A stretch of 33,583 bases of DNA from a virus (taxonomy: Duplodnaviria > Heunggongvirae > Uroviricota > Caudoviricetes). Positions 11,775 to 33,583 of this stretch are shown here, one piece after another. The stretch's first letter is position 1, and each line of letters begins with the position of its first letter. Below the pieces are notes generated by a model. The model worked only from the letters and a program-made list of their open reading frames with translations. It was not told where the DNA came from and made no database searches. A program made the position numbers and the translations under genes. The stretch lies in IMG/VR virus record IMGVR_UViG_2684622669_000021, positions 1 through 33,583 of that record; one strand, given 5' to 3'.

Positions 11775-12103
11775 TACTCCCCCCCATTGCCGTACAGAGT
11801 TTCAGCCGCTGATTTTTCTACATCCCCGGAAACAGGAGCGATCGCCATATCAGTGATCTGCAGATCGGCGCTGCGATTAACACCATCGTCAGTTTCTCTG
11901 GCAGACAGGCCTCGAATAACAGCCTTTGCAGTTATCATCACTTCTGTTCCGACGCCCTGAGGTTGCGCCTTCAGCTTATTCAATGTGTCGTTATTCAGCG
12001 TGATGCACAGCCCCCACGGGTATTCATCGCGAGTTCTGGTTTCTCCGCTCTCATCCTGGTAGCTGTCAGTGCCGGTTTTGAGGTTTACGAGTTCCATATA
12101 CAC
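11774..12103 (-). CDS. Small head/neck protein (109 aa), function unknown
   Basis: AGGAG RBS 6 nt upstream of the ATG at 12103. Lies between the capsid and tail-tubular genes. Confidence 0.5.
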   Translation of the reverse strand: MYMELVNLKTGTDSYQDESGETRTRDEYPWGLCITLNNDTLNKLKAQPQGVGTEVMITAKAVIRGLSARETDDGVNRSADLQITDMAIAPVSGDVEKSAAETLYGNGGE

Positions 12104-12147
12104 TCCTGCAATAAAGGGGCCGAAGCCCCTTGTCTGATTCGCGAGGC

Positions 12148-12483
12148 TTACACGCCCAGTTCTTTACGCTTATCTGCGATCTTCTCGCGGAGCGTTTCTG
12201 CTTTGGCGTTATGGTGTGGCTTCTCGTTAAAGAGCAATTCGTACTCTTCACGGAGCTTATCCAGTTCACCATCATCTGACGCATCGTTGATGATTTTGGT
12301 GCTGGTTGCTGCCATTGACACCTTTCCTGCAACTTTTGCTTTTGCCTGTCTGGCTGCATCGTTAACAGGTTCCAGTGCGCTACCAGGCTCACCTTCGTAT
12401 TCGATTTCTGCTCCCTCCGGCCACAGTGTGTTATGGATATGAGAGAGGCGCAGAACGCGGTATCTTGGTTTCTCACCAGACAT
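12148..12483 (-). CDS. Small charged head-associated protein (111 aa), function unknown
   Basis: Start placed at the ATG at 12481-12483, preceded by AAGGTGA. Lys/Glu-rich helical protein. The overlapping track ORF 12066..12476 in another frame is treated as spurious. Confidence 0.5.
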   Translation of the reverse strand: MSGEKPRYRVLRLSHIHNTLWPEGAEIEYEGEPGSALEPVNDAARQAKAKVAGKVSMAATSTKIINDASDDGELDKLREEYELLFNEKPHHNAKAETLREKIADKRKELGV

Positions 12484-14681: not shown

Positions 14682-14978
14682 TCACTCCTGTTCACTGGCC
14701 TCTTTGGCCATCTTCAAATACTGTTCAGGGCAATGCGCCATAACGCGCTGAAACAGTTCCAGCGCCAGATTGCGTTGCCCCTCATTAAATGCCATTGCCA
14801 TAGCGTCCATCGGTGAGATAGCGGAAAACACACGGCCTTTCTCCAGCACCGACCAGACAACGCGACGCCCCTGTTCACTGCTCATGACAAAGCGAATGTC
14901 ATCAATTTCACGCTGTGCCATGTCACGTTGCTTACGGGCGTTTTCTTCTTTCAGTTGATCGTCTTCGTAATCTGTCAT
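14682..14978 (-). CDS. Small head-assembly-associated protein (98 aa), function unknown
   Basis: ATGA overlap with the portal stop. Acidic N-terminus. Confidence 0.5.
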   Translation of the reverse strand: MTDYEDDQLKEENARKQRDMAQREIDDIRFVMSSEQGRRVVWSVLEKGRVFSAISPMDAMAMAFNEGQRNLALELFQRVMAHCPEQYLKMAKEASEQE

Positions 14979-16654
14979 TGTGATTGCCCACCCTGACCAC
15001 TAACTGCATTCACCATAGCTGACAAAACACTCGGATCCGAAGTTTTAGCTTCGCTTAGCGTCTTGGCACCCTGTGCCGCCGCCATCCCCATCGCCATCAT
15101 TTGTTGCTGCTGTTGCTGCTGTGCCCGTTGCTGGCGAGCCTGCTCAACCTGTTCCTGCGGAACAATGACGGTTGGAGACACTCCGGACATATCAGCGAAT
15201 GCATCGATCGCCTGATCAACGTTGAGTTTGTCGAGAGCTTCTGGTTTCGCTTGCGCAAGTTGACCAATGAAGTTAACCGTGGACGCCAGACTGGACAGGC
15301 CGATAGACTTCTGCGCCTGAGCCATGACGGAAATGTATTCGACCTTCAGGGGCATGCCTTCCATCGCGTCAGGCGGTGGCGGAAGCATGTTTTTACGCAC
15401 CATCATCGAGAAAGCGCGGTCAATGAGAGGATTAAGACATTCATCGTTCAGACGCTCCAGAACCGGCCCCAACATCAGAAGTTTTTCTTCTTTCATTTCG
15501 ATCACCGCTTCAACAGGCATCGAGCGGGTATTGATGTTCTGTAACATCATGAACAGATCGACAAAGTAGGCGCTGTTAATGATTTGACGAGTGTCCTGAA
15601 TGTCTGCCACCAAATCTGCTGTACTGGGGTTAACCAGATAAGCAGGCCTGAAACCATCCTGACCAGTAATCTGATCGATATACGTGATGTCGCCAGGAAG
15701 AAGGGAGGCACGCTGATTCTTGAGGGAAGTCGGAGCAACCATCGGCGGATTGGTGGCTTTATCAATCAACTGCGACTTGCGCTTCTGGAGAAGCTGCAAT
15801 GCCTTAACAGGTCCAAGCGCCAGCATGCCCGGGCATGATGATCCATAAACATCTTCGCCGTTAACTTCCCAGCGCGGAGCCATAATTGGAAACTCATCGA
15901 ATCCGGATTCACGTAACAACTTGTCGTTGTCGCCGCCAACCTCGTAATAAACCGATTTGAATGGCTTGTTCTTGCTATCCAGCTTCGATGTATCGCGGTC
16001 AATGTTCGGGTAAACCGAATGCATAACTTCAATCCACTTCTCGTAGGTGCCGCTTTCCCACATGCTTTTTACGGATTCGCTAACGTTATTTAGCCCGAAC
16101 TCCTGAACAAGCTGACGAACAGTCATAGAGAACTTGCGAAAACAGGTGTCCACACTGCCACGAGGTGAGTTAGCCAGGTAGTAACTGCCTATCGGGAATG
16201 GCATTGTGCGAATGATGTCCTCGTCATCCTCCAGCACCGCCATTGCACCAGTGCTGTATGTACCGAGGCTTCCGTATAACTGCGGCAGCGACTGGTAGAG
16301 ATTCGACTTATTGAACATATCGTTCATGCGGTTCTGCACCGCCTCAAGCCACAACTTAACAGGTCCATAATCCATCATTTCAGGATCTGGCGTAGCCAGG
16401 CGAAACCACGGACGCGCGGGGCTTGTGATGCCTGACATCATGCCGCTGGCGAGAGTGCGCGCCGCCATAGTCCCGGTCGAATCAATAATGCGTGTATTGC
16501 GCCGATCGTTACGGTTGACCTCAGAAGTCAGAAAGCGGGAACCACGCGGGTTGATGTAATCACTCAACTCGCGCCAGTGCGGCTCGAACGACTGACGCTC
16601 GCTTTCAAGTTGTGCGAACTGTTTGTTCAATCGCTCTTTAGTTGTTTCCGCCAT
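14975..16654 (-). CDS. Portal (head-to-tail connector) protein, 559 aa
   Basis: First large gene of the head module. C-terminal Gln/Ala/Met-rich tail (...QRAQQQQQQQMMAMGMAAAQGAKTL...) resembles the T7 gp8 connector C-terminus. AGGAGT RBS. Confidence 0.8.
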   Translation of the reverse strand: MAETTKERLNKQFAQLESERQSFEPHWRELSDYINPRGSRFLTSEVNRNDRRNTRIIDSTGTMAARTLASGMMSGITSPARPWFRLATPDPEMMDYGPVKLWLEAVQNRMNDMFNKSNLYQSLPQLYGSLGTYSTGAMAVLEDDEDIIRTMPFPIGSYYLANSPRGSVDTCFRKFSMTVRQLVQEFGLNNVSESVKSMWESGTYEKWIEVMHSVYPNIDRDTSKLDSKNKPFKSVYYEVGGDNDKLLRESGFDEFPIMAPRWEVNGEDVYGSSCPGMLALGPVKALQLLQKRKSQLIDKATNPPMVAPTSLKNQRASLLPGDITYIDQITGQDGFRPAYLVNPSTADLVADIQDTRQIINSAYFVDLFMMLQNINTRSMPVEAVIEMKEEKLLMLGPVLERLNDECLNPLIDRAFSMMVRKNMLPPPPDAMEGMPLKVEYISVMAQAQKSIGLSSLASTVNFIGQLAQAKPEALDKLNVDQAIDAFADMSGVSPTVIVPQEQVEQARQQRAQQQQQQQMMAMGMAAAQGAKTLSEAKTSDPSVLSAMVNAVSGQGGQSQ

Positions 16655-16668
16655 TTCAATGACTCCTG

Positions 16669-16875
16669 TTACTGACCAAGCAGCGTTTTACCGCTGGTAT
16701 TAGCGGTTGATGTGTCGCCCTGAGAACCGGTAAGCAGCGTAGAACTACGACCAGCAGCAGCGCGACGGCGACGTGTTTCTTCGTCGCGGGCATCAACAAC
16801 GGCGGCATCCTGCTCCTGTGGTGCTGCCTGAACTTCTGGTGTTGCAGGCACTGATGGTGAGCTACCCATGCACAT
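16669..16875 (-). CDS. Small low-complexity protein (68 aa) upstream of portal
   Basis: GGAG RBS before the ATG at 16875. Ala/Pro/Gln/Arg-rich composition gives weak coding support. Confidence 0.35.
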   Translation of the reverse strand: MCMGSSPSVPATPEVQAAPQEQDAAVVDARDEETRRRRAAAGRSSTLLTGSQGDTSTANTSGKTLLGQ

Positions 16876-17301
16876 ATCAATGACTCCGTACGCAATTAAA
16901 TTATTACCAATTTAACCATATATGATTTATTTATCGTAGACAGTTGACATTTAACGCACGAATTATTACCTTTCAGGTAACTAAAGAGTTCATTCCGGTT
17001 ACTAACCTGACTGGCTTGTCGTTAAATTGAACAGGTGGAGTGAGCTTTTATTTTGAGCAGTACGGCGTATGGCACATGCGCCGATAGCGGTCTGGATACG
17101 TTTAAGGGGCACCCTCCCTTGCTCGGGCAAACGAACCAGGTAGCCGGAATGTGCAAGTCGAGCGGTTTTATTCCGCGCACAGGGTTCACCATCCCGGCGA
17201 TTCGGTGTGACACCTCGGAAGAGACGAGGGTACAACGATGAGAGCATTTATGGAGCCGCGATAAAGTGTGGTGCCTTAACAGGCTAAGTGCTCTCAGCGT
17301 T

Positions 17302-17378
17302 GTGGCATTAGCTCAGTTGGACAGAGCAACCGCCTTCTAAGCGGTTGGTCGCAGGTTCGAATCCTGCATGCCGCGCCA
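17302..17378 (+). tRNA. tRNA-Arg, anticodon UCU (reads AGA), with encoded CCA
   Basis: Manual cloverleaf: acceptor GTGGCAT/ATGCCGC (one G-U pair); D-stem GCTC/GAGC; anticodon stem ACCGC/GCGGT with loop CTTCTAA (U33, anticodon TCT, A37); variable loop TGGTC; T-arm GCAGG-TTCGAAT-CCTGC; discriminator G; CCA. Related to but distinct from chromosomal argU. Confidence 0.9.
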
Positions 17379-17421
17379 GAATCACGCCTAAGGACCGTGA
17401 TGCCAGAAGTTCCAGGGGCTT

Positions 17422-17464
17422 GGCGGTGATGGTTTCCCTTGAAGGACTATCACCGCCCTTTTTA
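17422..17464 (+). terminator. Intrinsic terminator downstream of the tRNA
   Basis: Stem GGCGGTGAT...ATCACCGCC (9 bp) followed by CTTTTT. Confidence 0.7.
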
Positions 17465-17541
17465 CAGCAGGACGCCATTGCGATGACTTCATGCTGTAAA
17501 CCAGTACAGCCACGGAAGGCATAACTCATAGCTTCCAGTTC

Positions 17542-17566
17542 GCCCGGTTCGCCGGGCATTTTTTTA
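17542..17566 (+). terminator. Second intrinsic terminator
   Basis: Hairpin CCCGG-TTCG-CCGGG followed by CATTTTTTT. Confidence 0.7.
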
Positions 17567-17635
17567 CTTGAATTTTACCCTCAACAAACCAACATAGAAC
17601 TTGGCATTTGCCATAACTTTCACAAGGAGTCAGCC

Positions 17636-17935
17636 ATGAATGGTTGGAATAGAAAAAAGACTCAATATTTAGCTGAGTGCATCCACGAACACGAAAAAGC
17701 CGACGGAGTAACCTACGATCCTAACGGTATGGTTAGCTACTGGAACACAAAATATAACCTCGTTCCTGCTGAACAGTTGCCAGCATTACAAAATCAGGTA
17801 TCTCTCGAATTAGAAGCTCTACGCGGTGCTGAGACTAACCATGTAACAATTAGCAACATTGGTGCCGCTAAGTTTGGATTCGACTCTGTAATAGGGAATC
17901 ATCTACCTAACTTCGATCCGGAGCCAGTTAAGTAA
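17636..17935 (+). CDS. Orphan moron protein (99 aa), unknown function, opposite strand to the late operon
   Basis: Strong RBS (AAGGAGTCAGCC-ATG). More AT-rich than the flanks. Ends 11 nt from the convergent terL stop. No family recognised from MNGWNRKKTQYLAECIHEHEKADGVTYDPNGMVSYWNTKYN... Confidence 0.6.
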   Translation: MNGWNRKKTQYLAECIHEHEKADGVTYDPNGMVSYWNTKYNLVPAEQLPALQNQVSLELEALRGAETNHVTISNIGAAKFGFDSVIGNHLPNFDPEPVK

Positions 17936-17946
17936 TTTGCTGACCA

Positions 17947-19422
17947 TTATGCATAAGGGTCATAATCCGTTATGGCCCTTCCCTGCTGGCTTTGCTGTCC
18001 TGGTATATTTATGCGTTTCGAGACCGGGAAAGCAAACGTCAGCAGTAGCGCATCGCCTTTACCAGGAGAACGCCCAAGACGCTCTTTGATATCTTCCTTC
18101 GGTTCGATAACGATTTTACCGTCCACACGAACTTTGTACTCTGCCGCCGACAGGTCGTCTGCAGTTTCCTGGTCATCCAGCATGCCGCCCAGCCTCAGCC
18201 ATGTCTTACATGAGTTGAACATCTCCCCACGCTTGTTAAGCATCTGCGGGTCAGTGGACGCACCGCTGAACGGAACAAGTTGCCATGTACGTCCCCAGCC
18301 ATCACCGATTGACTTCAAACCGGTTCCGTAACCGAAGTCGATGAACACCGCGTCAGCCTGGTACTGGTCTTCAAAGTCAGCGATACGCTTCGCCATAATC
18401 AGATCGTCGGTGGTCTTGTTGCCGGTCCACAGCACCTTACTGTGCAGCCCCTGCCGCAGGTATATCACCGCGTCATCAACACCGGAGTATGCAGGGTCAA
18501 CGCCGATTATCACCGGAGCATGTGCCACCTGCGCAGCAGTTACCACCCGTTTCATTGCCTCGTCAGTAAGACCGGTAGGGATAAACTGCAATTCAGATGC
18601 ATCAGGGAATATACCGCGCACACGGATTTTAACGAAGTCGCTGTCTTCCCCGTAGTCATCAACCCATTTCTGCAACTGCTGTTTGTTGGTGCCTTCCACC
18701 GTCCGGCTGTCAATCTGCGCAGTTTTCCAGCGGTGTTTATATTTGCGGAAACATTCGCGGAAACGTCCGGTATTACGCGTCGGGTTTCCGAACGCCACCC
18801 AGATAATCTCAGTGTCTTCGTCCGTTAGCGCACCCTCGGCAACTTCCCACACCAGATCCGCAATGTTCGACGCTTCATCGAATACCACGATGATGCGTTT
18901 GCGCTCGTTGTGTAGTCCGGCGAATGCCTCAGTGTTGTGCTCAGACCAGGGGATTGCGTCAGCTCGCCACCGCTTGTCGTGCCCAGGATCATTGCTGTAC
19001 ATCGCGGTAGCGGTACAGGTAAACCAGTCTTTCGTGATAGCAAGGTTCGACCACTTGATAATTTCCGGCCAGGTCTTCGTTCGTAGCTGGTTGTCGGTGT
19101 TGGCGGTCACCACGACCTTACAATCCTCGCAAGTGGACATGCCCCAGTTGATGAGCATTGAGATGAATGCGGATTTACCAATACCGTGACCAGAAGCACG
19201 TGCCAGCATAAGCGGCTGATAACGCGTCTCTGGATTCTGCAGGTGATCACGTATCTCTCGGAACGCATCGGCCTGCCACTGACGTGGACCGGTAGCATGT
19301 GCCAGTTCAGTCCCCTCTTCCCCCCAAGGGAACGCATAGAGGGCATAGCCAAGCGGATCGTGAGTGAACCCTGCAATATCTTCGATTAACTGCTCTTCAG
19401 GAGATAACGCTGCATCTGTCAC
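17947..19422 (-). CDS. Terminase large subunit (491 aa)
   Basis: Walker A-like ARASGHGIGKS, Walker B-like IIVVFDEAS, and a C-terminal nuclease-type acidic segment (IGVDPAYSG...). ATGA overlap with terS. Confidence 0.85.
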   Translation of the reverse strand: MTDAALSPEEQLIEDIAGFTHDPLGYALYAFPWGEEGTELAHATGPRQWQADAFREIRDHLQNPETRYQPLMLARASGHGIGKSAFISMLINWGMSTCEDCKVVVTANTDNQLRTKTWPEIIKWSNLAITKDWFTCTATAMYSNDPGHDKRWRADAIPWSEHNTEAFAGLHNERKRIIVVFDEASNIADLVWEVAEGALTDEDTEIIWVAFGNPTRNTGRFRECFRKYKHRWKTAQIDSRTVEGTNKQQLQKWVDDYGEDSDFVKIRVRGIFPDASELQFIPTGLTDEAMKRVVTAAQVAHAPVIIGVDPAYSGVDDAVIYLRQGLHSKVLWTGNKTTDDLIMAKRIADFEDQYQADAVFIDFGYGTGLKSIGDGWGRTWQLVPFSGASTDPQMLNKRGEMFNSCKTWLRLGGMLDDQETADDLSAAEYKVRVDGKIVIEPKEDIKERLGRSPGKGDALLLTFAFPVSKRINIPGQQSQQGRAITDYDPYA

Positions 19423-20015
19423 TGATTACCATCCTGACGTTCTTTGAGTCGCTTCCTAGCTGCCGCTATGCGATCAGCAATTGTCACATTCACATTAACA
19501 TCCAAGCGTTCTTTGAATGCGTTGACGTCGACGTGCTTACCAATCAGTTCTAGGTTCTTCACCTTGTCAGGCCATTTAATTTTTTTGAGGATTGTCTCTA
19601 TCGAGTCCTCGTTCATGTTCATGATGGTCGATGACAGATCAAAGCCGCTAAGCGTAGTGCGCCATATTTTCGGCCACTCGCGGATTGGCTTAAGGCTCCC
19701 ATCGTCGTTGAGGATATCAATCACGTCCATCTGGTCGATCTCCACCAGGCGCATGAGAACGTAATCAGCACTGACGCGCATTCGTTTGTTGCGCTCCTCC
19801 ATCAACTCGGCAATCCGTTTTTGAATGCGTTCATCGCGCATCATGACACTGGCTTTAACTGCCGCTGTATTTGGGGAGAATCCTGCGTTAATCGCAGCCT
19901 GAGTCTGGTTTTCAGGCGTTTTGATGTATGACTGGCAATAAGCCTCCTGCATTGCTGTGAGCGGCTTAAATTGCGTTGATTTGCGTTTATAGGTTTTAGG
20001 TTCAGCAGGCATCAT
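19419..20015 (-). CDS. Terminase small subunit (198 aa)
   Basis: N-terminal signature ...LTAMQEAYCQSYIKTPENQTQAAINAGFSPNTAAVKASVMMRDERIQKRIAEL matches the terminase small-subunit family pattern. Start reassigned to an internal ATG; the track ORF carries a 26-aa extension. Confidence 0.8.
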   Translation of the reverse strand: MMPAEPKTYKRKSTQFKPLTAMQEAYCQSYIKTPENQTQAAINAGFSPNTAAVKASVMMRDERIQKRIAELMEERNKRMRVSADYVLMRLVEIDQMDVIDILNDDGSLKPIREWPKIWRTTLSGFDLSSTIMNMNEDSIETILKKIKWPDKVKNLELIGKHVDVNAFKERLDVNVNVTIADRIAAARKRLKERQDGNQ

Positions 20016-20133
20016 AACCACCCTGGTAATTGTTACCGTTGTGGTAATAGTAACATGCAAAATAAAGCCGCCATAGTTGGCGACAGTATTCAAAACCCAT
20101 CAAATTCATCATGCATAATCTACTCGTGACATG

Positions 20134-20475
20134 TCACACTATTAATTTCGTTTCATGCCAGCCTTTAGTCACCCAGCATTGCGAGTCACCATTACACGGG
20201 CATGAATTAACTGGAACTCTCTCGCCGCACTTACCGCAACATTTTCTGCTGATCGATTTTATACGCCCGCGCACGCGTGCATCATCCTGGCGAATCAGTA
20301 AAGCTATATACTCACCAAATTCGTAAGGCGCACGCCCGGGGCGACGCGTGGCACAGTTACGCTCCAGCATTTCAATTTCCTGAGCATCAAGCACAATTTC
20401 CAGCTTACGCACACCAGATGCAGCTTGTCTGGCTCTCTGAGCGGCTTTGCGCTCTGCTGCTGATTTAGCCATCAA
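20134..20475 (-). CDS. Hypothetical protein (113 aa) with a C-terminal Cys-rich, Zn-ribbon-like motif
   Basis: C-terminal RKCCGKCGERVPVNSCPCNGDSQC and a basic helical N-terminus. Last gene before terS. Confidence 0.5.
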   Translation of the reverse strand: MMAKSAAERKAAQRARQAASGVRKLEIVLDAQEIEMLERNCATRRPGRAPYEFGEYIALLIRQDDARVRGRIKSISRKCCGKCGERVPVNSCPCNGDSQCWVTKGWHETKLIV

Positions 20476-20746
20476 TATTCACCTTTATCGCGTACACCTT
20501 TACCGGTTTATCGCCGAAGTGCGGATGTGTGATTGTCTTGATTTCATATCCGTCATACGGAACATCAATTCTGCGGCTGGAATCGTCGCGCTTCGGATAT
20601 CCCTTTGTGATAATCAGTCGGTCATATTCGCGGAACATAATTCGCTTATTCCAGTAGTCATTACACAGGCGATACTCTTCCGTTTTCTCTCCGCGAATCA
20701 TGGCATCGAAGTATTCACCTTTAACGGCAAGTTGCAGGTTAGCCAC
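20465..20746 (-). CDS. Small ASCH/PUA-like (DUF3850-type) domain protein (93 aa)
   Basis: MANLQLAVKGEYFDAMIRGEKTEEYR... resembles the small phage ASCH-like family. Recalled, not searched. Confidence 0.45.
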   Translation of the reverse strand: MANLQLAVKGEYFDAMIRGEKTEEYRLCNDYWNKRIMFREYDRLIITKGYPKRDDSSRRIDVPYDGYEIKTITHPHFGDKPVKVYAIKVNIDG

Positions 20747-21650
20747 GGTTAACCTCCTGTGGCGGTTCTGGTAGCGGCATCCAGTGGGTTACCTCTTTGA
20801 GATACAGGTCTTCGCCATCACCGTCATCCCAAGTGGGCTTGCCATCATTAAACCAGTCGCCATATACGCCGACCTGAGTGTTGGGGATGTTTGGTGGGTA
20901 GTTGTTTTTAAAGTCAGCTGCTAACACATAGCATTGTCGCTCTCCCATTTCAGGCATTCGCTCACTACAGCTTATCCAACTATCCGGAGTTACCGGAGAG
21001 TTGCCAGCCACTCTACGCAAAACAGCCTTAACCGCCTCAATACGGTCATCATCGTAACTTTCCGCCGTATCTATGCGGTCGAGCATGATGATGGCGTTAT
21101 CAATATCAGGATTGCCAGTCCACTCATTACTGCGATTGGATTCGGCAGCCTGGTTACCAGATGCGGGTTGATTGTCGGCCTTACCCAGTCTGTCGTCGCT
21201 GCATGAATGCCCTTCCAGCCAGGCCAATGCTTGTCGCATGAAATACGCAATATGTTTGCCGTGGTAATCGTCTTCATCGATGTGAAAAGCGATACTGCGG
21301 ATGTATTCAATTGCGTTTTCGATGGCCTCTAACGCTATCGGCGCTGGCGGAGTGGTATATAATTTTCGACATTTGTATATCCAACCGGCATGGTCAGGCG
21401 TGTCTGTAAAGCGCAAATCGTCTTCGTAGCACTCACGACTACGTTCTTTCCATTCCGTCCACGGAACACCGCTATTCCAGGTGGGGCGAGTGCAGGACTG
21501 ATACAGAACAGGCTCTGCTTCCAGCGATGCCAGCACAATTCGTGCCAGTTCTTCCGCTTCTTCTGCTGGCAGTACAACGTTGCTACCAGGTCCGTATGTT
21601 TCGCGCCACTGCTTGATTGTCAGCAGTCGCTCTTTGGTAATAGTGGTCAT
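20739..21650 (-). CDS. DUF551-domain phage protein (303 aa)
   Basis: C-terminal ...WISCSERMPEMGERQCYVLAAD...GDWFNDGKPTWDDGDGEDLYLKEVTHWMPLPEPP is the DUF551-type signature common in lambdoid prophages. ATGA overlap with the upstream gene. Confidence 0.6.
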   Translation of the reverse strand: MTTITKERLLTIKQWRETYGPGSNVVLPAEEAEELARIVLASLEAEPVLYQSCTRPTWNSGVPWTEWKERSRECYEDDLRFTDTPDHAGWIYKCRKLYTTPPAPIALEAIENAIEYIRSIAFHIDEDDYHGKHIAYFMRQALAWLEGHSCSDDRLGKADNQPASGNQAAESNRSNEWTGNPDIDNAIIMLDRIDTAESYDDDRIEAVKAVLRRVAGNSPVTPDSWISCSERMPEMGERQCYVLAADFKNNYPPNIPNTQVGVYGDWFNDGKPTWDDGDGEDLYLKEVTHWMPLPEPPQEVNRG

Positions 21651-21856
21651 GTGTTAATCCTCAAAACTTTATGCCCGGGCGCAAAAGCACGCGTTTTGTC
21701 TTTGCTTATTCGCCAGCCATCCTTGCGCGCCTCTTTTGCACAGCCAGCCCATGACGTACCGATATATTCACCGAAGTCTGGCGTTTGATATTTACCATTT
21801 GTACACTGGCGACAATCACAGTAGAGATGCATGGTGTAACTTGCGGCAATAGCCAT
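21647..21856 (-). CDS. Small Cys-containing protein (69 aa), unknown function
   Basis: ATG at 21854-21856 preceded by AAGGAGAG. Sequence MAIAASYTMHLYCDCRQCTNGKYQTPDFGEYIGTSWAGCAKEARKDG... The track ORF 21647..22018 extends into the upstream gene. Confidence 0.5.
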   Translation of the reverse strand: MAIAASYTMHLYCDCRQCTNGKYQTPDFGEYIGTSWAGCAKEARKDGWRISKDKTRAFAPGHKVLRINT

Positions 21857-21857
21857 A

Positions 21858-22628
21858 TCACTCTCCTTTGATGCGAATACCAGCAGCGCGCTCGGCTTCA
21901 CTTTGTTCCCAAAACCACTTGTGAAGCGCCATAAGCTTTTCGTCAATCGGTGCATATTTGCGATTAAAGTAGGCCTGAGCATCTTTCTCAGATTCGTCCG
22001 GTAATTCGCCAGGGCCAAACAGTGTGTTATAAATCCATGCTAGTCCGCTCTTAGCGTCGCCAGTTGCCTGCCATTCGATAATGGCAGCCTGCATGACCAG
22101 AATGTTTTTCCCGATTAATAGGTCCAGTTCTTTGTACCGGTTGCGGATGTATGCATTCTCGCTTTGTAATTTTGCGTTGCGCTTTTCTGAGGCTTCAAGT
22201 AACGCCTGCTTATCGCGTAGCGCTTCTTCCAGTTCAGCAACATGGCATTCACTATCAATAAGGTTGTTCTCTGCTGCTTCAAGCTCAACACGCAGCTTCC
22301 CAACCGTAAGCGCAATCTCCTCGTTCTCCTGATCGCGGCGTTTTATGTATTGCTGGTTTCTTTCCCGTTCATCCAGTAGTGCCAGCACGGTAGCCGGGTT
22401 AGCCTCTGCTATGAATTCAGCGTTTGCATAAGCCTGAGCATCTGTTTCAACCAGGCAGTTAACATGACATTCTGCAATCACGCCACCGGGTTCTCCTTTC
22501 CATTTTTGACAAACAAAAACTCCTGTTATATTCCCATGCTGATTGACCGATGTATGCCCTACGATGTAGCTCCCTTTCGTTGCCTTTTCTGCCGCTTCAC
22601 GCAGTGCCTGATAGTTAATTTTGCTCAC
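21858..22628 (-). CDS. ead/Ea22-like family protein, paralogue 1 (256 aa)
   Basis: GTG start after AAGGAGGCAACCA. N-terminus [18 protein letters not shown]...; central coiled coil. GTGA overlap with the upstream paralogue. Confidence 0.7.
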   Translation of the reverse strand: MSKINYQALREAAEKATKGSYIVGHTSVNQHGNITGVFVCQKWKGEPGGVIAECHVNCLVETDAQAYANAEFIAEANPATVLALLDERERNQQYIKRRDQENEEIALTVGKLRVELEAAENNLIDSECHVAELEEALRDKQALLEASEKRNAKLQSENAYIRNRYKELDLLIGKNILVMQAAIIEWQATGDAKSGLAWIYNTLFGPGELPDESEKDAQAYFNRKYAPIDEKLMALHKWFWEQSEAERAAGIRIKGE

Positions 22629-22653
22629 TGGTTGCCTCCTTTGCGAAGCTGTT
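22621..22653. repeat. Junction repeat (copy 1) shared by the Ea22-like paralogues: RBS + GTG start + stop of the upstream gene
   Basis: TTGCTCACTGGTTGCCTCCTTTGCGAAGCTGTT is identical at 22621-22653 and 23205-23237. Confidence 0.8.
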
Positions 22654-23212
22654 CAGCAATACTTACGCATATCTCTGCGCCTCTAATCAGCCCCGGAACG
22701 TTCTTGTTTGGCCCAACTTCACCATCAACAAAATCAATCATCGCGTTACGAGCCATATCCACCCCCTGCGCACGTACTTCAGCCAGGAGAGCGTCGGTAG
22801 CTGGGGTTTCCGTGAAGTTGTCCTCCCAACCGTAGTACTCCTGACGACAGAAGTTATTAAATTCCTTCTCCGACTGTTTAAGCGCCGCATTCTCCACTGC
22901 CAGCGCCGCGCACTTGGCCTCAAGAGCTGCAACCACTTCCTGATGGTCTTTGTACTTAACGTATGAGCCGGAGATGTCATCACCTTCGGTGTTTAGCCAT
23001 GCGTCATTGCAATTCACTGCGTAGGTTCTGATGCTGATGCTCTCCCGCCCCTGACAGACGCCAGGCCAGTCAATAAAGTATCCGCAATGCCTACCCTCAG
23101 ACGTGCGCGCAGGATAAATGCCGTTATGACCCGGCAAAATATATGCTACCCATTCATCTTGCGTTGCCTGTTCCGCCGCCTCGCGCAGTTCTTGATAGTC
23201 AATCTTGCTCAC
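22625..23212 (-). CDS. ead/Ea22-like family protein, paralogue 2 (195 aa)
   Basis: GTG start at 23210-23212 after AAGGAGG. N-terminus SKIDYQELREAAEQ...; C-terminus ...ETPATDALLAEVRAQ...AEQLRKGGNQ shared with paralogues 3 and 4. Confidence 0.7.
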   Translation of the reverse strand: MSKIDYQELREAAEQATQDEWVAYILPGHNGIYPARTSEGRHCGYFIDWPGVCQGRESISIRTYAVNCNDAWLNTEGDDISGSYVKYKDHQEVVAALEAKCAALAVENAALKQSEKEFNNFCRQEYYGWEDNFTETPATDALLAEVRAQGVDMARNAMIDFVDGEVGPNKNVPGLIRGAEICVSIAEQLRKGGNQ

Positions 23213-23237
23213 TGGTTGCCTCCTTTGCGAAGCTGTT
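23205..23237. repeat. Junction repeat (copy 2)
   Basis: Identical 33-mer to 22621-22653. Confidence 0.8.
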
Positions 23238-23892
23238 CCGCACAATGCAGCAGGGCGTCCGTCGCTTCTTTCACCGTAACGATGTCGCCATCGTCCAGCC
23301 CGACAACCGTCGCGTCCTTAACGAACACCGAGCAAAGGTCATTAAACGCCTGCGCCCGCACTTCAGCCAGGAAAGCGTCGGTGGCTGGCGTTTCCCGTGA
23401 ACGGTAAGACCAAACAATGTCGTCTGTTTCACTGGGTTCTTCATGAGAGCAATTTGGGCAGACAGCAGTACAACCAGCATGATCTTCTATGAGCATCTTC
23501 AGCCACGAGTTCTCCTCCGCCAGCGTCACGCGACTGGCCTCCAGTTCTGCTACGCGCTGTTTTGCAGCATCCAGTTCAATCGACAATTTTTCCAACTGCT
23601 CTTTATGCTTTTTATATTCCTGATATGCGTGCCAAGACTGACCTTTGCGCACACTATCAGTGATATCAGTAATCTGTTCTGGTGTTAGCGTGGTCAGTGG
23701 CTGTGATGGGAAAATAAGCACTTTCCCGGAATCCCAATCAAAACCAGCGTGAATTGACTGAACCTCAACTGAAGGTGTTGAACCAATGCTGCCAGGCGAA
23801 TGAACAACGATTGTTACATCCATATCGCGACGATGGCTGTGGTTGTTGGACAAAATACGATTCACCAACTCAGAAAATTTGGAAAATTTCAT
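23209..23892 (-). CDS. ead/Ea22-like C-terminal module fused to a distinct N-terminal domain (227 aa)
   Basis: ATG start. N-terminus MKFSKFSELVNRILSNNHSHRRDMDVTIVVHSPGSIG... is unrelated to the SKINYQ N-termini. C-terminus ...[15 protein letters not shown]...AEQLRKGGNQ is shared with the other paralogues. Confidence 0.65.
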   Translation of the reverse strand: MKFSKFSELVNRILSNNHSHRRDMDVTIVVHSPGSIGSTPSVEVQSIHAGFDWDSGKVLIFPSQPLTTLTPEQITDITDSVRKGQSWHAYQEYKKHKEQLEKLSIELDAAKQRVAELEASRVTLAEENSWLKMLIEDHAGCTAVCPNCSHEEPSETDDIVWSYRSRETPATDAFLAEVRAQAFNDLCSVFVKDATVVGLDDGDIVTVKEATDALLHCAEQLRKGGNQ

Positions 23893-24179
23893 GCTGATTC
23901 CCCTTTCTCTGCTCTCTCCTGTCGGAACATCACTATCATCAGGTCGCCTTTTGTCGCTATCCTCGCTGTTGTGCCTGGTTCAATGCTGCCAAGTTCAAAT
24001 GCGTCATAGAACGCTTCTAATGCCTTCTGGCGTAGTTCCTGTTTGCGCCGTTTTTTCCACTGTTTCAGGAAAATGGAACCCAGCCATCGCCATGTACGGG
24101 ACATGATGTAAAGCCAACCGAGAAGTGCCAGACCGGTATTTAGGGCCGTATCGAGCGTTATCGTGGTGTCGATATTCAC
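23889..24179 (-). CDS. Small predicted single-pass membrane protein (96 aa) inside the Ea22-like array
   Basis: GTG start after AAGGAAGCAGCCA, overlapping the upstream stop. Hydrophobic segment ALNTGLALLGWLYIMSRTWRWLGSIF followed by a basic stretch KQWKKRRKQELRQK. Confidence 0.55.
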   Translation of the reverse strand: MNIDTTITLDTALNTGLALLGWLYIMSRTWRWLGSIFLKQWKKRRKQELRQKALEAFYDAFELGSIEPGTTARIATKGDLMIVMFRQERAEKGESA

Positions 24180-24877
24180 TGGCTGCTTCCTTTGCGAATC
24201 TGTTCCGCCCATTCTTCAAGGGATTTCTCCGCATATTCACCAGACAGGCCATCAATCGGATGCGCTTCATTAGCCAACTCTTCTTTCGCTGACAAAATCA
24301 TGCGTGTAACGTCGAAAACTTCACGCAAAGACTTATTGATAAATCCGTGATTGAACGCAGCAGCAAGACGGCTGGCGGTATAGTTAATCCCCTCGTTGCG
24401 TGCTTCCGCACGAATTTCAGCCAGAAAAGCATCGGTAGCTGGAGTTTCGCTGTGGTGTAGGGCATCGTTGATAATCATTGCAGCAACACCAGCCTGCCCT
24501 GCATCCGTGACCGACACATGATCAAGAGTTACAGCCATTGCGTGTTTCAGCCCGGCGTTCTCTGCCACCAGAGCCGCGAGCTTAGTCTCAAGCGGTGCTA
24601 TTCGGCACATAGCATCAATATTTGTGTCCTCCAGGCGCTTAATTTCACCAAGTAGCTCCAGTGCAACCTTTGGGTTGAATGCGGCAATATAACGAGCGTT
24701 GTTCTCTGCGTTTTTCAGTCCATCAAAGCCGGTCCATTTGATAACATCTTCACATCGTTTATCACCGGGCGTATGCACAGCATACGTACCTGTACCCGTC
24801 GAAATAAACGCGACCCATTCGCCCTGTGTTGCCTGTTTTGCTATCTCACGTAGTGCCTGATAGTTAATTTTGCTCAC
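24176..24877 (-). CDS. ead/Ea22-like family protein, paralogue 4 (233 aa)
   Basis: GTG start at 24875-24877 after AGGAGGCAACCA. N-terminus [23 protein letters not shown]...; conserved ...[15 protein letters not shown]... segment. Confidence 0.7.
24177..24204. repeat. Junction repeat (copy 3, diverged)
   Basis: CACTGGCTGCTTCCTTTGCGAATCTGTT, a diverged copy of the same junction. Confidence 0.6.
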
Positions 24878-25616
24878 TGGTTGCCTCCTGGCAAAGCTGG
24901 GCGACAATATCGCGATATTTATTCAGCTCCCGCAGCGCGACACAGACTCGCTCCCATTTCCGGATATCACTTTTCGCCCGACGCAGTTCGCGGTTTGCCT
25001 GTCGCAGCGATGGCAGAACCAGATTATCCACTCGATTCTCAAGCGGCTGCACAATGTCTGCCACAGTTTCTGTTTTAATATCTTCCTGTGTTGCAGCTTC
25101 CTGTCCCGGTAACGCAACACCTGCTGGTTGAGGAAAGGCCTTACCATCACTTTCCGTTACCAGCGCGGCTTTCGGCTCTGCTGGTAAATTATCGCCCGGC
25201 ATGCAGTAACGAAATTTACCGTTCTGATTAACGCGTGCCAGCCGCCCCGTTGCGGTTACCACCGCCAGCGTGGAAGCAACCTTGCGAGTACTGACACCGA
25301 ACTTACCCGCCAGTTCCTCACACGTTTTAGCCCCATCCTGACCGATAAACTCAATCATCATGTCTGCGGTAACTTTTTGTTCGACCTCCCCGGTCAGCAT
25401 ATCCTGTGCTTCAGATTTTACTGGCCGCTCTTCGGTTACCCGGGATTCACCTTCGCCAGCCAGAGACCAGGTGTGACCAGTTTTATCAACAACGCCATTT
25501 CTTTTGAGTTCCCACAGCTCGTTGACAGCCTCTTCACGACTGATATCAAGTCGCGCAGCCAGTTCTACCGACGTGGCTTTTCCCATTGCTTTCAGTGCGT
25601 CAAATACAGTTTCCAT
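24864..25616 (-). CDS. Winged-helix DNA-binding protein (250 aa) with two HTH-like modules
   Basis: ATG at 25614-25616 after GGGAGGAAA. Two HTH-like segments: [28 protein letters not shown] and [31 protein letters not shown]. Recalled as a common prophage family of unknown function. Confidence 0.55.
24871..24900. repeat. Junction repeat (copy 4, diverged)
   Basis: TGCTCACTGGTTGCCTCCTGGCAAAGCTGG, a diverged copy of the same junction. Confidence 0.6.
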
Positions 25617-30062: not shown

Positions 30063-32165
30063 ATGACTGAGATTGAGGAGAATATGCTCCTGCCGGTTTC
30101 AGGTCAGATTCTGCCTGTTCGATGGCTGGCACAGCACGGCAGCGAAAAACCGATCACACACGTTTCGCGGGGCGAACTACGCGCATTACATAACGCACAG
30201 GATGAAAAACTTCCCGCCGTTACCGCGCTGGCCATCTCAAATAAAGCAGCGCAACTCGAACCGCTGGAAATTCGCGATCTCCACAAACTGGTTCGTGACA
30301 CTGACAAAGTTTTCCCTAATCCTGGTAATTCAGACCTGGGACTGATGACTGCTTTTTTCGAAGCCTACCTGGGCGCTGACTACACCGATCGCGGTCTGCT
30401 GACAAAAGAGTGGATGAAAGGAAATCGTGTTTCACGCATCACCCGCACGGCTTCCGGTGCTAATGCCGGTGGAGGGAACAAAACCGATCGCAATCCGAAT
30501 TTAGTACACACCTTCGATACGCTGGATGTGGAGATTGCAGCGGCCACACTTCCGATGGATTTTAATATTTATGAAATTCCGGGCAGCGTTTATCGTCGCG
30601 CAAAAGAAGTCGTCCGGAAGAAAGAAAGTCCGTTCAAAGAATGGTCCGCGGCACTTCGCGCAATCCCGGGTATCCTGGATTATTCCCGCGCCGCTATTTT
30701 TGCACTTATCCGGAGCGCACACCCTGAGTTTTATCATTACCCGGGACGTCTTCAGGGGTATATCAACGCCTATTTAACAGAGACTGATCACGAGAACCCT
30801 TCCGAGGAAACTCTCGCTGCTGCACGACATACACCGGAAAAAGATATCCTGGAAGAAGTTAACCGCGAACTGGCTGCTGAACGCGAAACAGAAGAAGAAA
30901 AAAATAATGAGGAAAAATCACAACCGTCTGACGCAATGGCAGATGAACAGGCAACGGCTGAAACAATGGAACCGGATACAACTGAACATCGCCAGGACAC
31001 GCAATCGCTGGATGCTCAGGCACAGATAGATCCAGTTAATCAGGTAAAAGTTACCGCTGACGAAGTAAACAAAATTATGCAAGCAGCCAATATCAGCCAG
31101 CCTGACGCCGATAAGTTGCTTGCGGCCTCTCGCGGTGAATTTGTTGCAGGGATTAGCGACCCGAATGATCCGAAATGGGTGAAGGGGATTGAAACCCGCG
31201 ATTCTGTGAACCAGAACCAACAAGAATCGGAACAGAACGACCAGAAAGCGGAACAAAACAGCCCAAATGCGTTACAAAACGAGCCAGAAACGAAACAGCC
31301 TGAACCAGTGGCGCAACAGGAAGTGGAAAAAGTTTGCAATGCCTGCGGTCAGTCTGGCGGGGATAACTGCCCTGACTGTGGTGCGGTGATGGGCAACGCA
31401 ACATACCAGGAAACATTCGATGACGAGAATCAGGTTGAAGTTCAGGAAAATGATCCGGAGGAAATGGAAGGCGCTGAACATCCACAAAAGGAGAATGCTG
31501 GCAGCGCTCAGGACCACGCCAGCGATAATGAAACTGGCGAGACGGCAGATCCCTTAATTGCAGTGAACGGTCATCACATTATCACATCCACCAGCAGAGT
31601 GTGGTACCACCTGATGATCGACCTTGAAACAATGGGAACCAACACCAATGCGCCCATCGTGGTTATTGGTGCGGTTTTCTTCGACCCACAAACAGGGGAA
31701 ATCGGGCCAGTATTTTATATCGTTATCAGTCTGACTGACGCAATGAATACAGGGGCTGTTCCTGACGGTGGAACCATCGAATGGTGGCTGAAGCAGTCCA
31801 GTGAAGCCAGAGCTGCCATTTTAACAGACCAGGTAAAACTGAAGGATGCCCTTTCGCGGTTTCGGGAGTTCATCAACGAATACTCAGATGAAAAATTAGT
31901 TCAGGTATGGGGTAATGGTGCAACTTTCGATAACGCAATTTTGCGCACCTCATACGAACACCTGGACATCCCCTGCCCGTGGCGCTACTACAACGATCGC
32001 GATGTACGCACAATCGTTGAGCTGGGGAAAGCCATAGACTTCGATGCCAGAACGGCTATTCCATTCGAAGGTGAGCGCCATAATGCACTTGATGACGCCC
32101 GTTACCAGGCAAAATACGTTTCAGCTATCTGGCAAAAACTGATCCCGAGTCAGGCTGATTCTTAA
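30063..32165 (+). CDS. RecE-like protein: RecE N-terminal/linker region fused to a C-terminal DEDDh 3'-5' exonuclease domain (700 aa)
   Basis: N-terminus [36 protein letters not shown]..., the acidic Gln/Glu-rich linker and the Zn-ribbon [20 protein letters not shown] are recognised from RecE (exodeoxyribonuclease VIII). The C-terminal 200 aa carry DnaQ-like motifs: Exo I MIDLET, Exo [14 protein letters not shown], Exo [16 protein letters not shown]. Confidence 0.7.
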
Positions 32166-32226: not shown

Positions 32227-32496
32227 ATGAGCGAACAGTACCTGATAACGCTCGACGAGTGGAAACCAAAACGGTTCAGTCTCCCAATAACAAACACTAC
32301 CCTGGTGAAATACGGAAAACTAGGATACATCGTTCCAAGACCACAAAAAATTCGTGGGCGTTGGCTGATAGATCGCCGAGCAGTATTTGTTGGGCCTGGT
32401 GAAACGGGAATTGCGCCGGAAATTCATACTGGCGATGATGATGCACTGAAGGAGATTTTAACTCATGTCACCGAGGCCACGAAAAAACAGCACTGA
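32227..32496 (+). CDS. xis: Excisionase (Xis-like), 89 aa
   Basis: Immediately upstream of and overlapping int. Basic winged-helix-like sequence YLITLDEWKPKRFSLPITNTTLVKYGKLGYIVPRPQKIRGRWLIDRRAVF. Start at the ATG at 32227 after GGAG. Confidence 0.6.
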   Translation: MSEQYLITLDEWKPKRFSLPITNTTLVKYGKLGYIVPRPQKIRGRWLIDRRAVFVGPGETGIAPEIHTGDDDALKEILTHVTEATKKQH

Positions 32497-33583
32497 CGTA
32501 GCCGGTCTTTACGAAAAGTTTGATCGCAGAACTGGCAGAGTTTACTACCAGTATAAAAATCCTGTGACTGGAAAATTTCACGGACTCGGAACAGACAAAG
32601 GTAAGGCAGAAAAAATCGCTTCCACAGCCAATCAGCGAATAGCTGCAGCAGAAGCTGAATATTTCATGCGCAAAATTGATGAAAGTCCGTCAGCAACAAA
32701 ACGTCGGGGTATCAGATTAAAGGCATGGGTTGATCGATATCTGAAAATACAGGACACGCGACTGAAAAATGGAGATATTGCAGCTACAACTCACAAAGAA
32801 AAAGCCCGAATGGCTGCATACCTGGTTTCCCGTCTGGGAAACCACCCATTGAAAGAACTGGAAGTAAGAGACTTTGCATTAATACTGGATGAGTGGCTGG
32901 ATAAAGACATGGTCAGCACAGCGAGAGTAAATCGCGGATTATGGGTTGATATTTATAAAGAAGCACAGCATGCAGGGGAAGTCCCTCCCGGATGGAATCC
33001 TCCGGAGGCTACCCGTAAACCGATCCCTAAAGTAACCAGAGCCAGGCTCACTCTGGAAGACTGGCAAAAAATTTACAACGCAACGCCTGAAAAACACTTT
33101 ATCCGTAACGCAATGCTTCTTGCGATTGTTACTGGTCAGCGCCGTGATGACATTTGCCACATGCGTTTTTCAGATGTGTGGAACGAACACTTGCATATCA
33201 CCCAGGGAAAAACCGGAATGCGTCTGGCGTTACCGCTTACACTACGCTGTGATGCTATTGGGATAACGTTAAAAGAAGTTATTGATGGGTGCCGAGACAG
33301 AATATTAAGTCCATATCTAATCCATAGTCGGCACCAGAAACAACCGAAGCCGATGAGTAAAGACAACCTGAGCGACTACTTTGCCAAAGCACGGGATCTG
33401 GCTGGGATAATTCCACCAGCAGGAAAAACTCCGCCAACATTTCATGAACAACGCTCTCTATCAGAACGGCTGTACCGTGCACAGGGTATCGATACAAAAA
33501 CATTACTAGGACATAAAGTCCAGGCAACCACCGATCGCTATAACGATACTCGAGGTCAGGAATGGGTTAAGTTGGTTATTTGA
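32465..33583 (+). CDS. int: Lambda-family tyrosine integrase (372 aa); stop codon is the last triplet of the window
   Basis: N-terminal ...YYQYKNPVTGKFHGLGTDKGKA... and C-terminal ...TFHEQRSLSERLYRAQGIDTKTLLGHKVQATTDRYNDTRGQEWVKL parallel lambda Int (...YYCYRDPRTGKEFGLGRDRR... and ...FHELRSLSARLYEKQ...LLGHKSDTMASQYRDDRGREWDKI). The catalytic-region R, H-x-x-R and Y are present. Confidence 0.9.
   Translation: MSPRPRKNSTDVAGLYEKFDRRTGRVYYQYKNPVTGKFHGLGTDKGKAEKIASTANQRIAAAEAEYFMRKIDESPSATKRRGIRLKAWVDRYLKIQDTRLKNGDIAATTHKEKARMAAYLVSRLGNHPLKELEVRDFALILDEWLDKDMVSTARVNRGLWVDIYKEAQHAGEVPPGWNPPEATRKPIPKVTRARLTLEDWQKIYNATPEKHFIRNAMLLAIVTGQRRDDICHMRFSDVWNEHLHITQGKTGMRLALPLTLRCDAIGITLKEVIDGCRDRILSPYLIHSRHQKQPKPMSKDNLSDYFAKARDLAGIIPPAGKTPPTFHEQRSLSERLYRAQGIDTKTLLGHKVQATTDRYNDTRGQEWVKLVI

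Follow-up and report, generated by a model that had tools for sequence, protein, structure and literature searches.

Lambdoid phages carry short conserved boundary (linker) sequences between otherwise unrelated modules (Susskind & Botstein 1978; Clark et al. 2001, on HK620; summarized in PMC3029335), and phage recombinases of the Red/Rad52-like type catalyze relaxed homologous recombination (PMC2327257, PMC3945230). Ea22 is a tetrameric protein in which a coiled coil separates a short N-terminal from a variable C-terminal domain; it favors lysogeny in lambda and Phi24B (PMC10834534, PMC7093339); lambda ea22 is non-essential. A second family is represented by HK446 gp27 (Oad2), which binds and inhibits the P2 OLD defense nuclease, has P22 EaE as a relative, and in some cases occurs as a fusion with Ead/Ea22 proteins (bioRxiv 10.64898/2026.07.10.737580). 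Here we analyze an array of Ead/Ea22-like genes in a 33,583-nt stretch of viral DNA (IMG/VR record IMGVR_UViG_2684622669_000021), the whole of which we call the window. The window is an Escherichia coli lambdoid-type prophage. Its array lies on the minus strand, downstream of the replication genes, and successive genes are linked by a short repeated sequence that we call the joint.

The family, its modular plan, phage mosaicism, short boundary sequences, and relaxed recombination are already established, and the pattern is common and annotated in lambda-like phages; the locus leaves the general understanding of lambdoid phages unchanged. What it contributes is a naturally occurring, well-resolved instance in which cassettes are gained and lost at a dual-coding joint. 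It is also a clear illustration from nature of the long-standing "linker sequence" model of phage mosaicism: three prophage alleles, two exchanges, and one repeated joint. We consider it likely that the array is a set of exchangeable cassettes encoding modular Ead/Ea22/EaE proteins, with the joint and the conserved gene ends acting as portable homology.

Under this proposal, four cassettes would encode modular Ead/Ea22/EaE proteins and one a DUF4752 protein. Each modular protein would combine a variable N-terminal domain and a coiled coil with either an EaE-type C-terminal half or a 933W-Ea22-type C-terminal domain. A standard joint would link the cassettes, and in it the final upstream codons double as the ribosome-binding site for the gene that comes after; when that gene is Ead-type, its first ~17–25 codons are conserved too. 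The joint and these adjoining ends would then provide portable homology for the gain, loss, and swap of cassettes, whether between prophages, between pL (exo-xis) and pR operons, or between phage types. Phage Rad52-type or RecET/Red recombinases, or host RecA, would presumably catalyze the exchanges, and imprecise events would leave stubs and in-frame fusions and so create new domain combinations.

Gene content and the repeated joint

The array comprises five genes, all on the minus strand. Ead1 (24176..24877; 233 aa, GTG start) matches PF13935 (E 8.7e-26, 91.6 bits) and, over its full length, phrog_368; it has a full Ead N-terminal domain, a coiled coil, an ETPATD module, and the end IRKGSSQ-stop. 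The DUF4752 gene (23889..24179; 96 aa, GTG start; PF15944, E 2.4e-41) encodes a protein unrelated to the Ead family. p227 (23209..23892; 227 aa, ATG start) matches phrog_6026 at residues 1–113 and phrog_368 at residues 17–227, and consists of a different N-terminal domain, a coiled coil, the ETPATD module, and the end …AEQLRKGGNQ-stop. Ead2 (22625..23212; 195 aa, GTG start; PF13935, E 1.3e-17, 65.2 bits) carries the ETPATD module and the same …AEQLRKGGNQ-stop end. Ead3 (21858..22628; 256 aa, GTG start; PF13935, E 3e-38, 131.9 bits) is without the module and ends …GIRIKGE-stop. The array is preceded by a DUF1627 gene, its upstream anchor (24864..25616; Pfam PF07789, E 4e-85), whose start at 25616 agrees with the RefSeq annotation of locus L001. 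It is followed by p69 (21647..21856; 69 aa, phrog_926), which accompanies Ead3-type genes in other phages as well (array strings; loci L125, L131, and L132).

Ead1, Ead2, and Ead3 all lie above the curated PF13935 gathering threshold of 27 bits; p227 has no Pfam match and so falls outside that family, though some sources nonetheless label it Ead/Ea22-like. PHROGs places Ead1, Ead2, and residues 17–227 of p227 in one family of unknown function, NCBIfam gives no match among the five array proteins, and the RefSeq label for these genes is "ead/Ea22-like family protein (x3)". A literature search on DUF4752 and "Ea22-like" yielded nothing useful. An earlier note on this DNA, made from its letters alone, had described SKI(N/D)YQ(A/E)LRE in three proteins, ETPATDA(F/L)LAE(V/I)RA in three, a shared …LRKGGNQ end in two, and one member with a different N-terminal domain. 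All four observations hold, for Ead1, Ead2, and Ead3; for Ead1, p227, and Ead2; for p227 and Ead2; and for p227 (23209–23892), respectively. The TTG-extended open reading frame starts given with it (24907 and 23245) are replaced by the true starts, GTG codons at 24877 and 23212. Its description of the 96-aa DUF4752 product as an unrelated "membrane protein" using the same junction is right about the lack of relationship and, for a junction variant with two mismatches, about the joint; the membrane label rests on one weakly hydrophobic segment (residues 7–25, mean Kyte–Doolittle 1.2).

The 17-mer core of the joint, AAGGAGGCAACCAGTGA, has four matches with at most two mismatches, against 0.11 expected by chance, and none of 100 shuffles reached four. 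Junction J1 (Ead2→Ead3; 22621..22654) and junction J2 (p227→Ead2; 23205..23238) are identical over an exact 34-mer, with exact 17-mers at 22625–22641 and 23209–23225; the two copies had been reported as identical 33-mers, so that their identity stands and their length is 34 nt. J4 (Ead1→DUF4752; 24176..24192) is the two-mismatch variant AAGGAAGCAGCCAGTGA, with a GTGA overlap. J5 (DUF1627→Ead1; 24874..24890) has one mismatch and an upstream gene in another frame: DUF1627 passes through the block as …QEATSEQN, its TAA stop lying 11 nt beyond, so that its final 14 nt overlap Ead1. Two of the six joints deviate from the AAGGAGGCAACCAGTGA block. J3 (DUF4752→p227) uses GGGGAATCAGCATGA instead, the p227 start overlapping the DUF4752 stop as ATGA. 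Ead3→p69 belongs to a second junction class, AAAGGAGAGTGAtATG (21854..21869), which encodes the …KGE end of Ea22 proteins. The statement that each junction repeats the same block thus applies to four copies, one of them in another frame.

On the coding strand the joint reads …GAA CAG CTT CGC AAA GGA GGC AAC CAG TGA, that is, E-Q-L-R-K-G-G-N-Q-stop, and contains a perfect Shine–Dalgarno (SD) sequence AAGGAGG, which a 6-nt spacer separates from a GTG start overlapping the TGA. The 34-mer shared by J1 and J2 accordingly holds AEQLRKGGNQ-stop, the SD, the spacer, and the GTGA stop/start overlap. The shared LRKGGNQ protein end is therefore the translated ribosome-binding site of the next gene. The arrangement resembles that of translationally coupled overlapping genes, with the SD inside the upstream open reading frame and a GTG overlapping the upstream TGA (AAGGAGG, 6 nt, and GTGA at J1, J2, and J4; ATGA at J3), and differs from it at DUF1627→Ead1, where the overlap is 14 nt and in the other frame. 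The joint probably gives tight, coupled translation of successive genes. At none of the six junctions was the RNA fold more stable than in shuffled sequences (z about 0), and an RNA-structure explanation of the joint was dropped on that ground.

The second junction class follows the same logic. The Ead3→p69 joint reads AAA GGA GAG TGA t ATG (…K-G-E-stop), and the 12-mer AAAGGAGAGTGA has 84 copies in the fetched loci, where the ten commonest following 8-mers (71 of 84) are all nATG. Every Ea22 protein ends in K/R-G-E, a feature whose significance was called unknown by Dydecka et al. 2020 (PMC7093339); an embedded SD can explain it simply. The locus would thereby account for the conserved KGE and RKGGNQ ends as translated ribosome-binding sites rather than protein motifs. 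In lambda (locus L128, ~29847), ea22 ends …GGCATTCGCATCAAAGGAGAGTGA, an SD-containing block after which a gene start is absent; the next annotated gene, ea8.5, lies ~190 nt downstream of the ea22 stop. A downstream cassette seems to have been lost here, leaving this end as its relic.

Sharing at the DNA level among the window paralogues is confined to four patches: the joint with the adjoining N-terminal codons, a weak coiled-coil stretch, the ETPATD module, and the C-terminal end. The ETPATD repeat spans 47 nt in Ead2 (22765..22811), p227 (23349–23395), and Ead1 (24403–24449), where the copies are 81–89% identical and many differences are synonymous. Outside the patches the gene bodies cannot be aligned as DNA, in line with the earlier description of unrelated centers, except that a coiled-coil stretch, LEAKxAAL..ENAxLK, is common to them. 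Between p227 and Ead2 the last 8 codons and the joint are identical, and the ETPATD codons differ largely at synonymous sites. Across contexts the joint block is translated in three frames, including as RRQPVSK in read-through fusions. This identity, the synonymous change in ETPATD, and the three reading frames show that constraint on the joint acts on DNA rather than protein.

A simpler account would be that the joint is kept only as a good translation-initiation region inherited by descent, recombination there being incidental and no more frequent than elsewhere. The perfect SD and its 6-nt spacer fit this account, as do GTGA or ATGA overlaps at nearly all Ead-type starts whatever the upstream block, the existence of several other junction classes, and the unremarkable folding of the junction RNA. 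Conservation, however, extends far beyond the SD, from about −30 to +45 nt before dropping to background (121 non-redundant sites), and stretches of 34–40 nt are 100% identical between genes whose bodies cannot be aligned. The block also precedes unrelated genes and is read in three frames, and the endpoints of two independent indels that separate sister prophages lie precisely in the repeat. On balance we regard this account as unlikely.

Exchange between prophages and spread of the joint

The window array recurs in the closest genome, Z1323CEC0006. In SLK172 (locus L002) and several other strains the array lacks exactly Ead2 (584 bp); aligning the window with L002 gives two blocks that have 80 nt of the junction/N-terminal repeat in common, and the joint of L002 is a chimera. 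A third allele, in the second prophage of strain Z1323CEC0004 (locus L131), reads DUF1627-Ead2-Ead3 and encodes an Ead2 protein identical to that of the window. Here the difference is a 1,665-bp indel comprising Ead1-DUF4752-p227 and bounded by a 106-nt shared stretch.

Both indels are bounded by a 96-nt direct repeat that consists of the junction and the first ~25 Ead codons. Copy 1 (22545..22640) borders the 584-bp indel, copy 2 (23129..23224) borders both, and copy 3 (24794..24889) borders the 1,665-bp indel; all three are on the minus strand. The indel lengths equal the spacings of this repeat family, and on that basis recombination at the joint is shown by comparison of the prophage sequences. 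The window array could have arisen by unequal exchange between two simpler arrays, the direction being open to either. Cassette turnover across related prophages, which the earlier note had proposed as a check, is seen in the Ead2 and Ead1-DUF4752-p227 indels and more widely in array composition, with 101 label strings among 123 loci. In other prophages a methyltransferase or a DUF7167 cassette occupies these joints, and a DUF4752-p227-Ead-p69 block stands behind an Eae gene in a YfdR (CPS-53-like) context.

These features align the joint with the boundary sequences of lambdoid phages: It is a short conserved sequence between otherwise unrelated flanking modules, natural variants are linked by exchange within it (the 584-bp and 1,665-bp indels), and HK620 hkaH/hkaG belong to the same families as the array proteins. 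It differs in being dual-coding—C-terminal peptide, SD, and start codon together—and in lying inside an accessory-gene array, with up to four copies per operon. Because it is repeated up to four times in one operon, it would drive intramolecular gain and loss too. The joint sequence is recodable and could serve to measure the share of short boundary homology in cassette flow.

The joint is widespread. A 55-mer around it occurs in 782 of 5,426 complete E. coli genomes, with as many as six sites in a single genome; in 142 phage records, among them HK97, HK75, HK544, mEpX1, Shiga toxin (Stx) phages, P22-like Salmonella phages (SE10), and P1; and in 183 plasmids, mostly non-mobilizable and, among the matches listed, about 60–150 kb in size. 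The exact 17-mer is present on at least 120 IMG/VR contigs. Genes 3′ of the joint are mostly Ead-type, with at least 12 unrelated families besides, and the upstream ends are likewise diverse, from several families (159 sites, IMG/VR and reference loci). Arrays occur after the replication genes (pR), in the exo-xis/pL region (…Bet-orf61-TraR-E-E-E; …E-DUF551-Xis-Int), and just before the terminase. Plasmid matches, among them a Shigella flexneri plasmid (NZ_CP058787.1, 563–5126; locus L133), carry Ead arrays with the same joint and with DUF4752 and DUF551 genes. The non-mobilizable plasmids with Ead arrays are probably phage-plasmids.

Several points weigh against the exchangeable-cassette proposal. 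The IMG/VR sample was picked by the 17-mer itself, and when the one selected site per locus is discounted, 10 of 30 further Ead-type starts use the joint and 20 use other blocks; an xTGA stop/start overlap closes every one of the 12 distinct upstream blocks listed in that count. The joint is not universal; several other junction classes exist. The indels cannot be polarized as insertion or deletion, and crossing over could have taken place in the N-terminal homology, which is longer (up to ~100 nt) than the 17-nt core. Selection for expression would favor a perfect SD and a stop/start overlap in any case, and part of the conservation therefore needs no recombination argument.

A dedicated cassette-mobility system, with the repeats as sites of integron-like site-specific recombination or homing-endonuclease targeting, would also produce a cassette-like array with a standard joint, and fusions of EaE-like proteins to HNH homing nucleases occur in some phages (bioRxiv 10.64898/2026.07.10.737580). 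Neither an integron integrase nor an HNH gene was found in or next to the array, however, the only integrase being the lambda-type prophage Int (32465–33583). The joint is also without an attC-like fold (z about 0), and the crossovers fall inside extended homology, as homologous recombination predicts. We judge such a system highly improbable.

Chimeric proteins and candidate functions

The array proteins are chimeras. Between Ead3 and ORF-47c, the ea22 homologue of Stx2 phage I (Traversvirus tv933W, exo-xis region), identity is 96.4% in nucleotides and 97% in amino acids. The homology ends at the start codon; the block upstream of ORF-47c is AGAGAGGTTCGAAGTGA, as in lambda. Ead3 is thus the orthologue of the 933W-type Stx2 phage ea22. 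Ead2, queried against 1.84 billion cluster representatives, gave proteins matching separate parts of it, residues 4–60, 62–120, 96–197, and 128–197. Its residues 58–195 correspond to a stand-alone 139-aa protein (P0269 and P0361 compared), and its relative P0361 retains the start Met of the stand-alone gene in frame (…GRESINMSIRTY…). Ead2 is a fusion of a truncated Ead N-terminal stub (~52 aa) to a stand-alone EaE-like gene, and P0361 suggests that its linker derives from a ribosome-binding site.

Comparable products occur in relatives. P0435 is a DUF1627-Ead read-through fusion across the joint, and among 155 distinct family members the N-terminal type, the ETPATD motif, and the C-terminal end combine in 16 ways. 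Unannotated remnants were found in HK97 (locus L126, ~2524–2630), where the joint and a truncated Ead-type open reading frame of 34 codons follow gp37, and in HK446 (locus L130), where the joint and a shorter Ead stub, with a TAA after …LTE, lie just 3′ of gp27 at 3509. Each stub is a deletion scar. The separate sub-stretch matches, the stand-alone gene, the combinations, and the joint-bounded indels together sustain the recombination-driven domain shuffling that the earlier note suspected.

A contrasting origin would be local tandem duplication of one ancestral ead gene, followed by divergence in place. The common N- and C-terminal motifs, the tandem order, and the shared orientation are what duplication would leave behind. 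Yet the central parts cannot be aligned as DNA, and much closer relatives lie elsewhere: Ead3 is 96% identical to a 933W-type Stx-phage ea22 in another operon, an identical Ead2 protein occurs in a different prophage, the Ead2 body matches both the stand-alone 139-aa gene and HK75_28, and the DUF4752-p227 block recurs behind the Eae gene in the CPS-53-like context. Duplication in place is therefore very unlikely, and the window "paralogues" appear instead to have been assembled from imported cassettes.

The array proteins share features with two known families. As in Ea22 of lambda and of the Stx phages 933W and Phi24B (vb_24B_6c), an N-terminal domain is followed by a coiled coil and a variable C-terminal domain (PMC10834534, PMC7093339), and lambda Ea22 also shares the GTGA start overlap and the …GIRIKGE-stop end. 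The array genes, however, lie in the rightward operon after the replication genes rather than between exo and xis, and there are several copies rather than one. Three of the four window proteins carry an EaE-type C-terminal half in place of the lambda- or 933W-type domain, and the upstream joint is AAGGAGGCAACCAGTGA in the window and AGAGAGGTTCGAAGTGA in Ea22. With the EaE family (P22 EaE, HK97 gp37, HK75_28, HK446 gp27), Ead1, Ead2, and p227 share the coiled-coil sequence LEAKCAALAAENAxLK, the ETPATD motif, the …QLRKGGNQ-stop end, and the joint; the center of HK75_28 is almost identical to that of Ead2. The EaE N-terminus (MKQMSLIEMDGF… or MKQMSLIEMDGFLKGKCIPRDLKV…) is absent from all four window proteins, whose N-termini are Ead-type or p227-type, and the segments between motifs differ.

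A directed pairwise BLASTP comparison, whose E-values reflect a small search space, matched Oad2 to Ead2 (36% identity over 124 aa, 3e-11), Ead1 (34% over 127 aa, 6e-10), and p227 (43% over 61 aa, 1e-8). The link is also backed transitively via HK75-like proteins, and Ead2 matches the HK75-like P0350 at E 3.8e-22 in the whole library. By their shared C-terminal half, Ead1, Ead2, and p227 would belong to the EaE/Oad2 family; a profile of this half reaches at least 7,894 clusters. The link connects three unstudied E. coli prophage proteins to the Oad2/EaE family and makes them reasonable candidates for counter-defense screens.

One might instead take the array for decaying prophage junk, pseudogenes and fusion debris without function. 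The truncated N-terminal domain of Ead2, the stubs in HK97 and HK446, and the non-essentiality of lambda ea22 could be cited in its favor. All five genes are nonetheless free of frameshifts and internal stops, and the ratio of nonsynonymous to synonymous substitution (dN/dS) against orthologues is 0.11–0.41 (0.20–0.39 for Ead1). Identical array proteins are seen on hundreds of contigs (289 for p227), and Ead1 homologues form 5,837 clusters at 90% identity. The ETPATD motif is kept despite synonymous change, and family phenotypes exist in the lysogeny-favoring Ea22 and the OLD-inhibiting Oad2. The array genes are under purifying selection and are not pseudogenes, and we give the junk explanation scarcely any weight. 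Conservation of the junction at the DNA level and intact genes, on which the earlier note had made its account depend, were both found.

As to what the cassettes do, there is about an even chance that the window proteins are early-expressed oligomeric modulators of host or defense functions with rapidly changing specificities, by analogy with their characterized relatives. A bolder version, which we offer tentatively and think somewhat doubtful, sees the array as a counter-defense or host-takeover battery built on one oligomerizing coiled-coil scaffold, each paralogue bearing a different target-binding module, as Oad2 targets OLD. In that scheme the dual-coding joint would serve as a plug-and-play adaptor between pL and pR operons, lambdoid phages, P22-like phages, and phage-plasmids, and imprecise events would make new fusions. 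Hetero-oligomers that combine specificities might also arise among co-expressed paralogues, given a coiled coil in common.

Other results tell against such functional assignments. The HK75 homologue of Oad2, 54% identical to it, does not inhibit OLD (bioRxiv 10.64898/2026.07.10.737580); specificity is therefore narrow, and the activity is not transferable to window proteins that are 34–43% identical over part of their length. AlphaFold2 models are of low confidence, with a mean predicted local distance difference test score (pLDDT) of 52 for Ead1 (25 sequences) and 50 for Ead2 (33 sequences). A PADLOC scan gave no credible defense or anti-defense assignment.

Within the low-confidence models, long helices are predicted at Ead1 residues 69–120 and Ead2 residues 83–132, with pLDDT ~80 around 100–125. 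PDB sequence searches with Ead3 and Ead1 returned only coiled-coil or repeat noise and no related solved chain. Weak coiled-coil matches to LmuB in the PADLOC scan were rejected as evidence of a defense system. Ead3 residues 145–243, the 933W-type Ea22 C-terminal domain, match the profile PDLC02890 "DpdH" (E 1.6e-36, 99/127 positions). We rejected this assignment: The match is isolated, other Dpd components are absent, and DpdH is described as a large BrxC-like protein. PDLC02890 may have been mis-built from a prophage gene, or the Ead3 C-terminal domain may really occur near Dpd islands.

Prophage context and neighboring features

The minus-strand operon runs, by Pfam and gene context, from YdaS/YdaT-type cro/cII analogues through O-like, DnaC-like, and DUF1627 genes to the array and then DUF551, 3′ of which the terminase small subunit follows directly and then a T7-type portal. 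The opposite strand carries a cI-like repressor, an exonuclease gene, xis, and int. Because the array comes after the O-like, DnaC-like, and DUF1627 genes, we place it in the rightward early operon, of which (pR-type) it is the accessory-gene segment. The exo-xis interval of the window prophage contains no Ead gene, the exo-like gene (30063–32165) being followed directly by xis and int. Promoter and terminator counts within the array are at chance level and none stands out, so that internal transcription units cannot be proposed; an Rfam search of the array found zero families.

The anchor upstream of the array has several weak winged-helix/helix-turn-helix matches (HTH_11, PafC, a MarR-type PHROG, and a Ren-like exclusion PHROG), and the DUF1627 protein may be a DNA-binding regulator. 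Downstream, the early operon (14975–21650, minus strand) continues with DUF551, two small open reading frames, and the small terminase subunit (19419–20093). The T7-type portal (PF12236) is at 14975–16654, and the stretch between DUF551 and the portal is without a Q antiterminator or lysis genes. The order array-p93-p113-TerS is seen again in several IMG/VR contigs.

Between the genes for the portal and the large terminase, a small islet on the strand opposite to that of the phage structural genes carries a tRNA-Arg gene (anticodon UCU; 17302–17378, plus strand) and a 99-aa open reading frame (17636–17935). Defenses that cleave tRNAs can reportedly be countered by phage tRNAs (bioRxiv 10.64898/2026.07.10.737580), which for this tRNA-Arg is a lead only. 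At 30063–32165 on the plus strand, directly upstream of xis and int, a 700-aa protein combines an exonuclease VIII fragment (RecE; PF06630, residues 8–68) with an Rv2179c-like 3′–5′ exoribonuclease (PF16473, residues 516–690), an unusual exonuclease architecture for a pL operon.

The region of the window from replication genes to Ead is 91.6% identical in nucleotides to positions 10048–12325 of Actinobacillus phage vB_Apl-pPE4 (PP818812.1). Either the host assignment of that phage (Actinobacillus pleuropneumoniae) is doubtful or the region was recently transferred between bacterial families.

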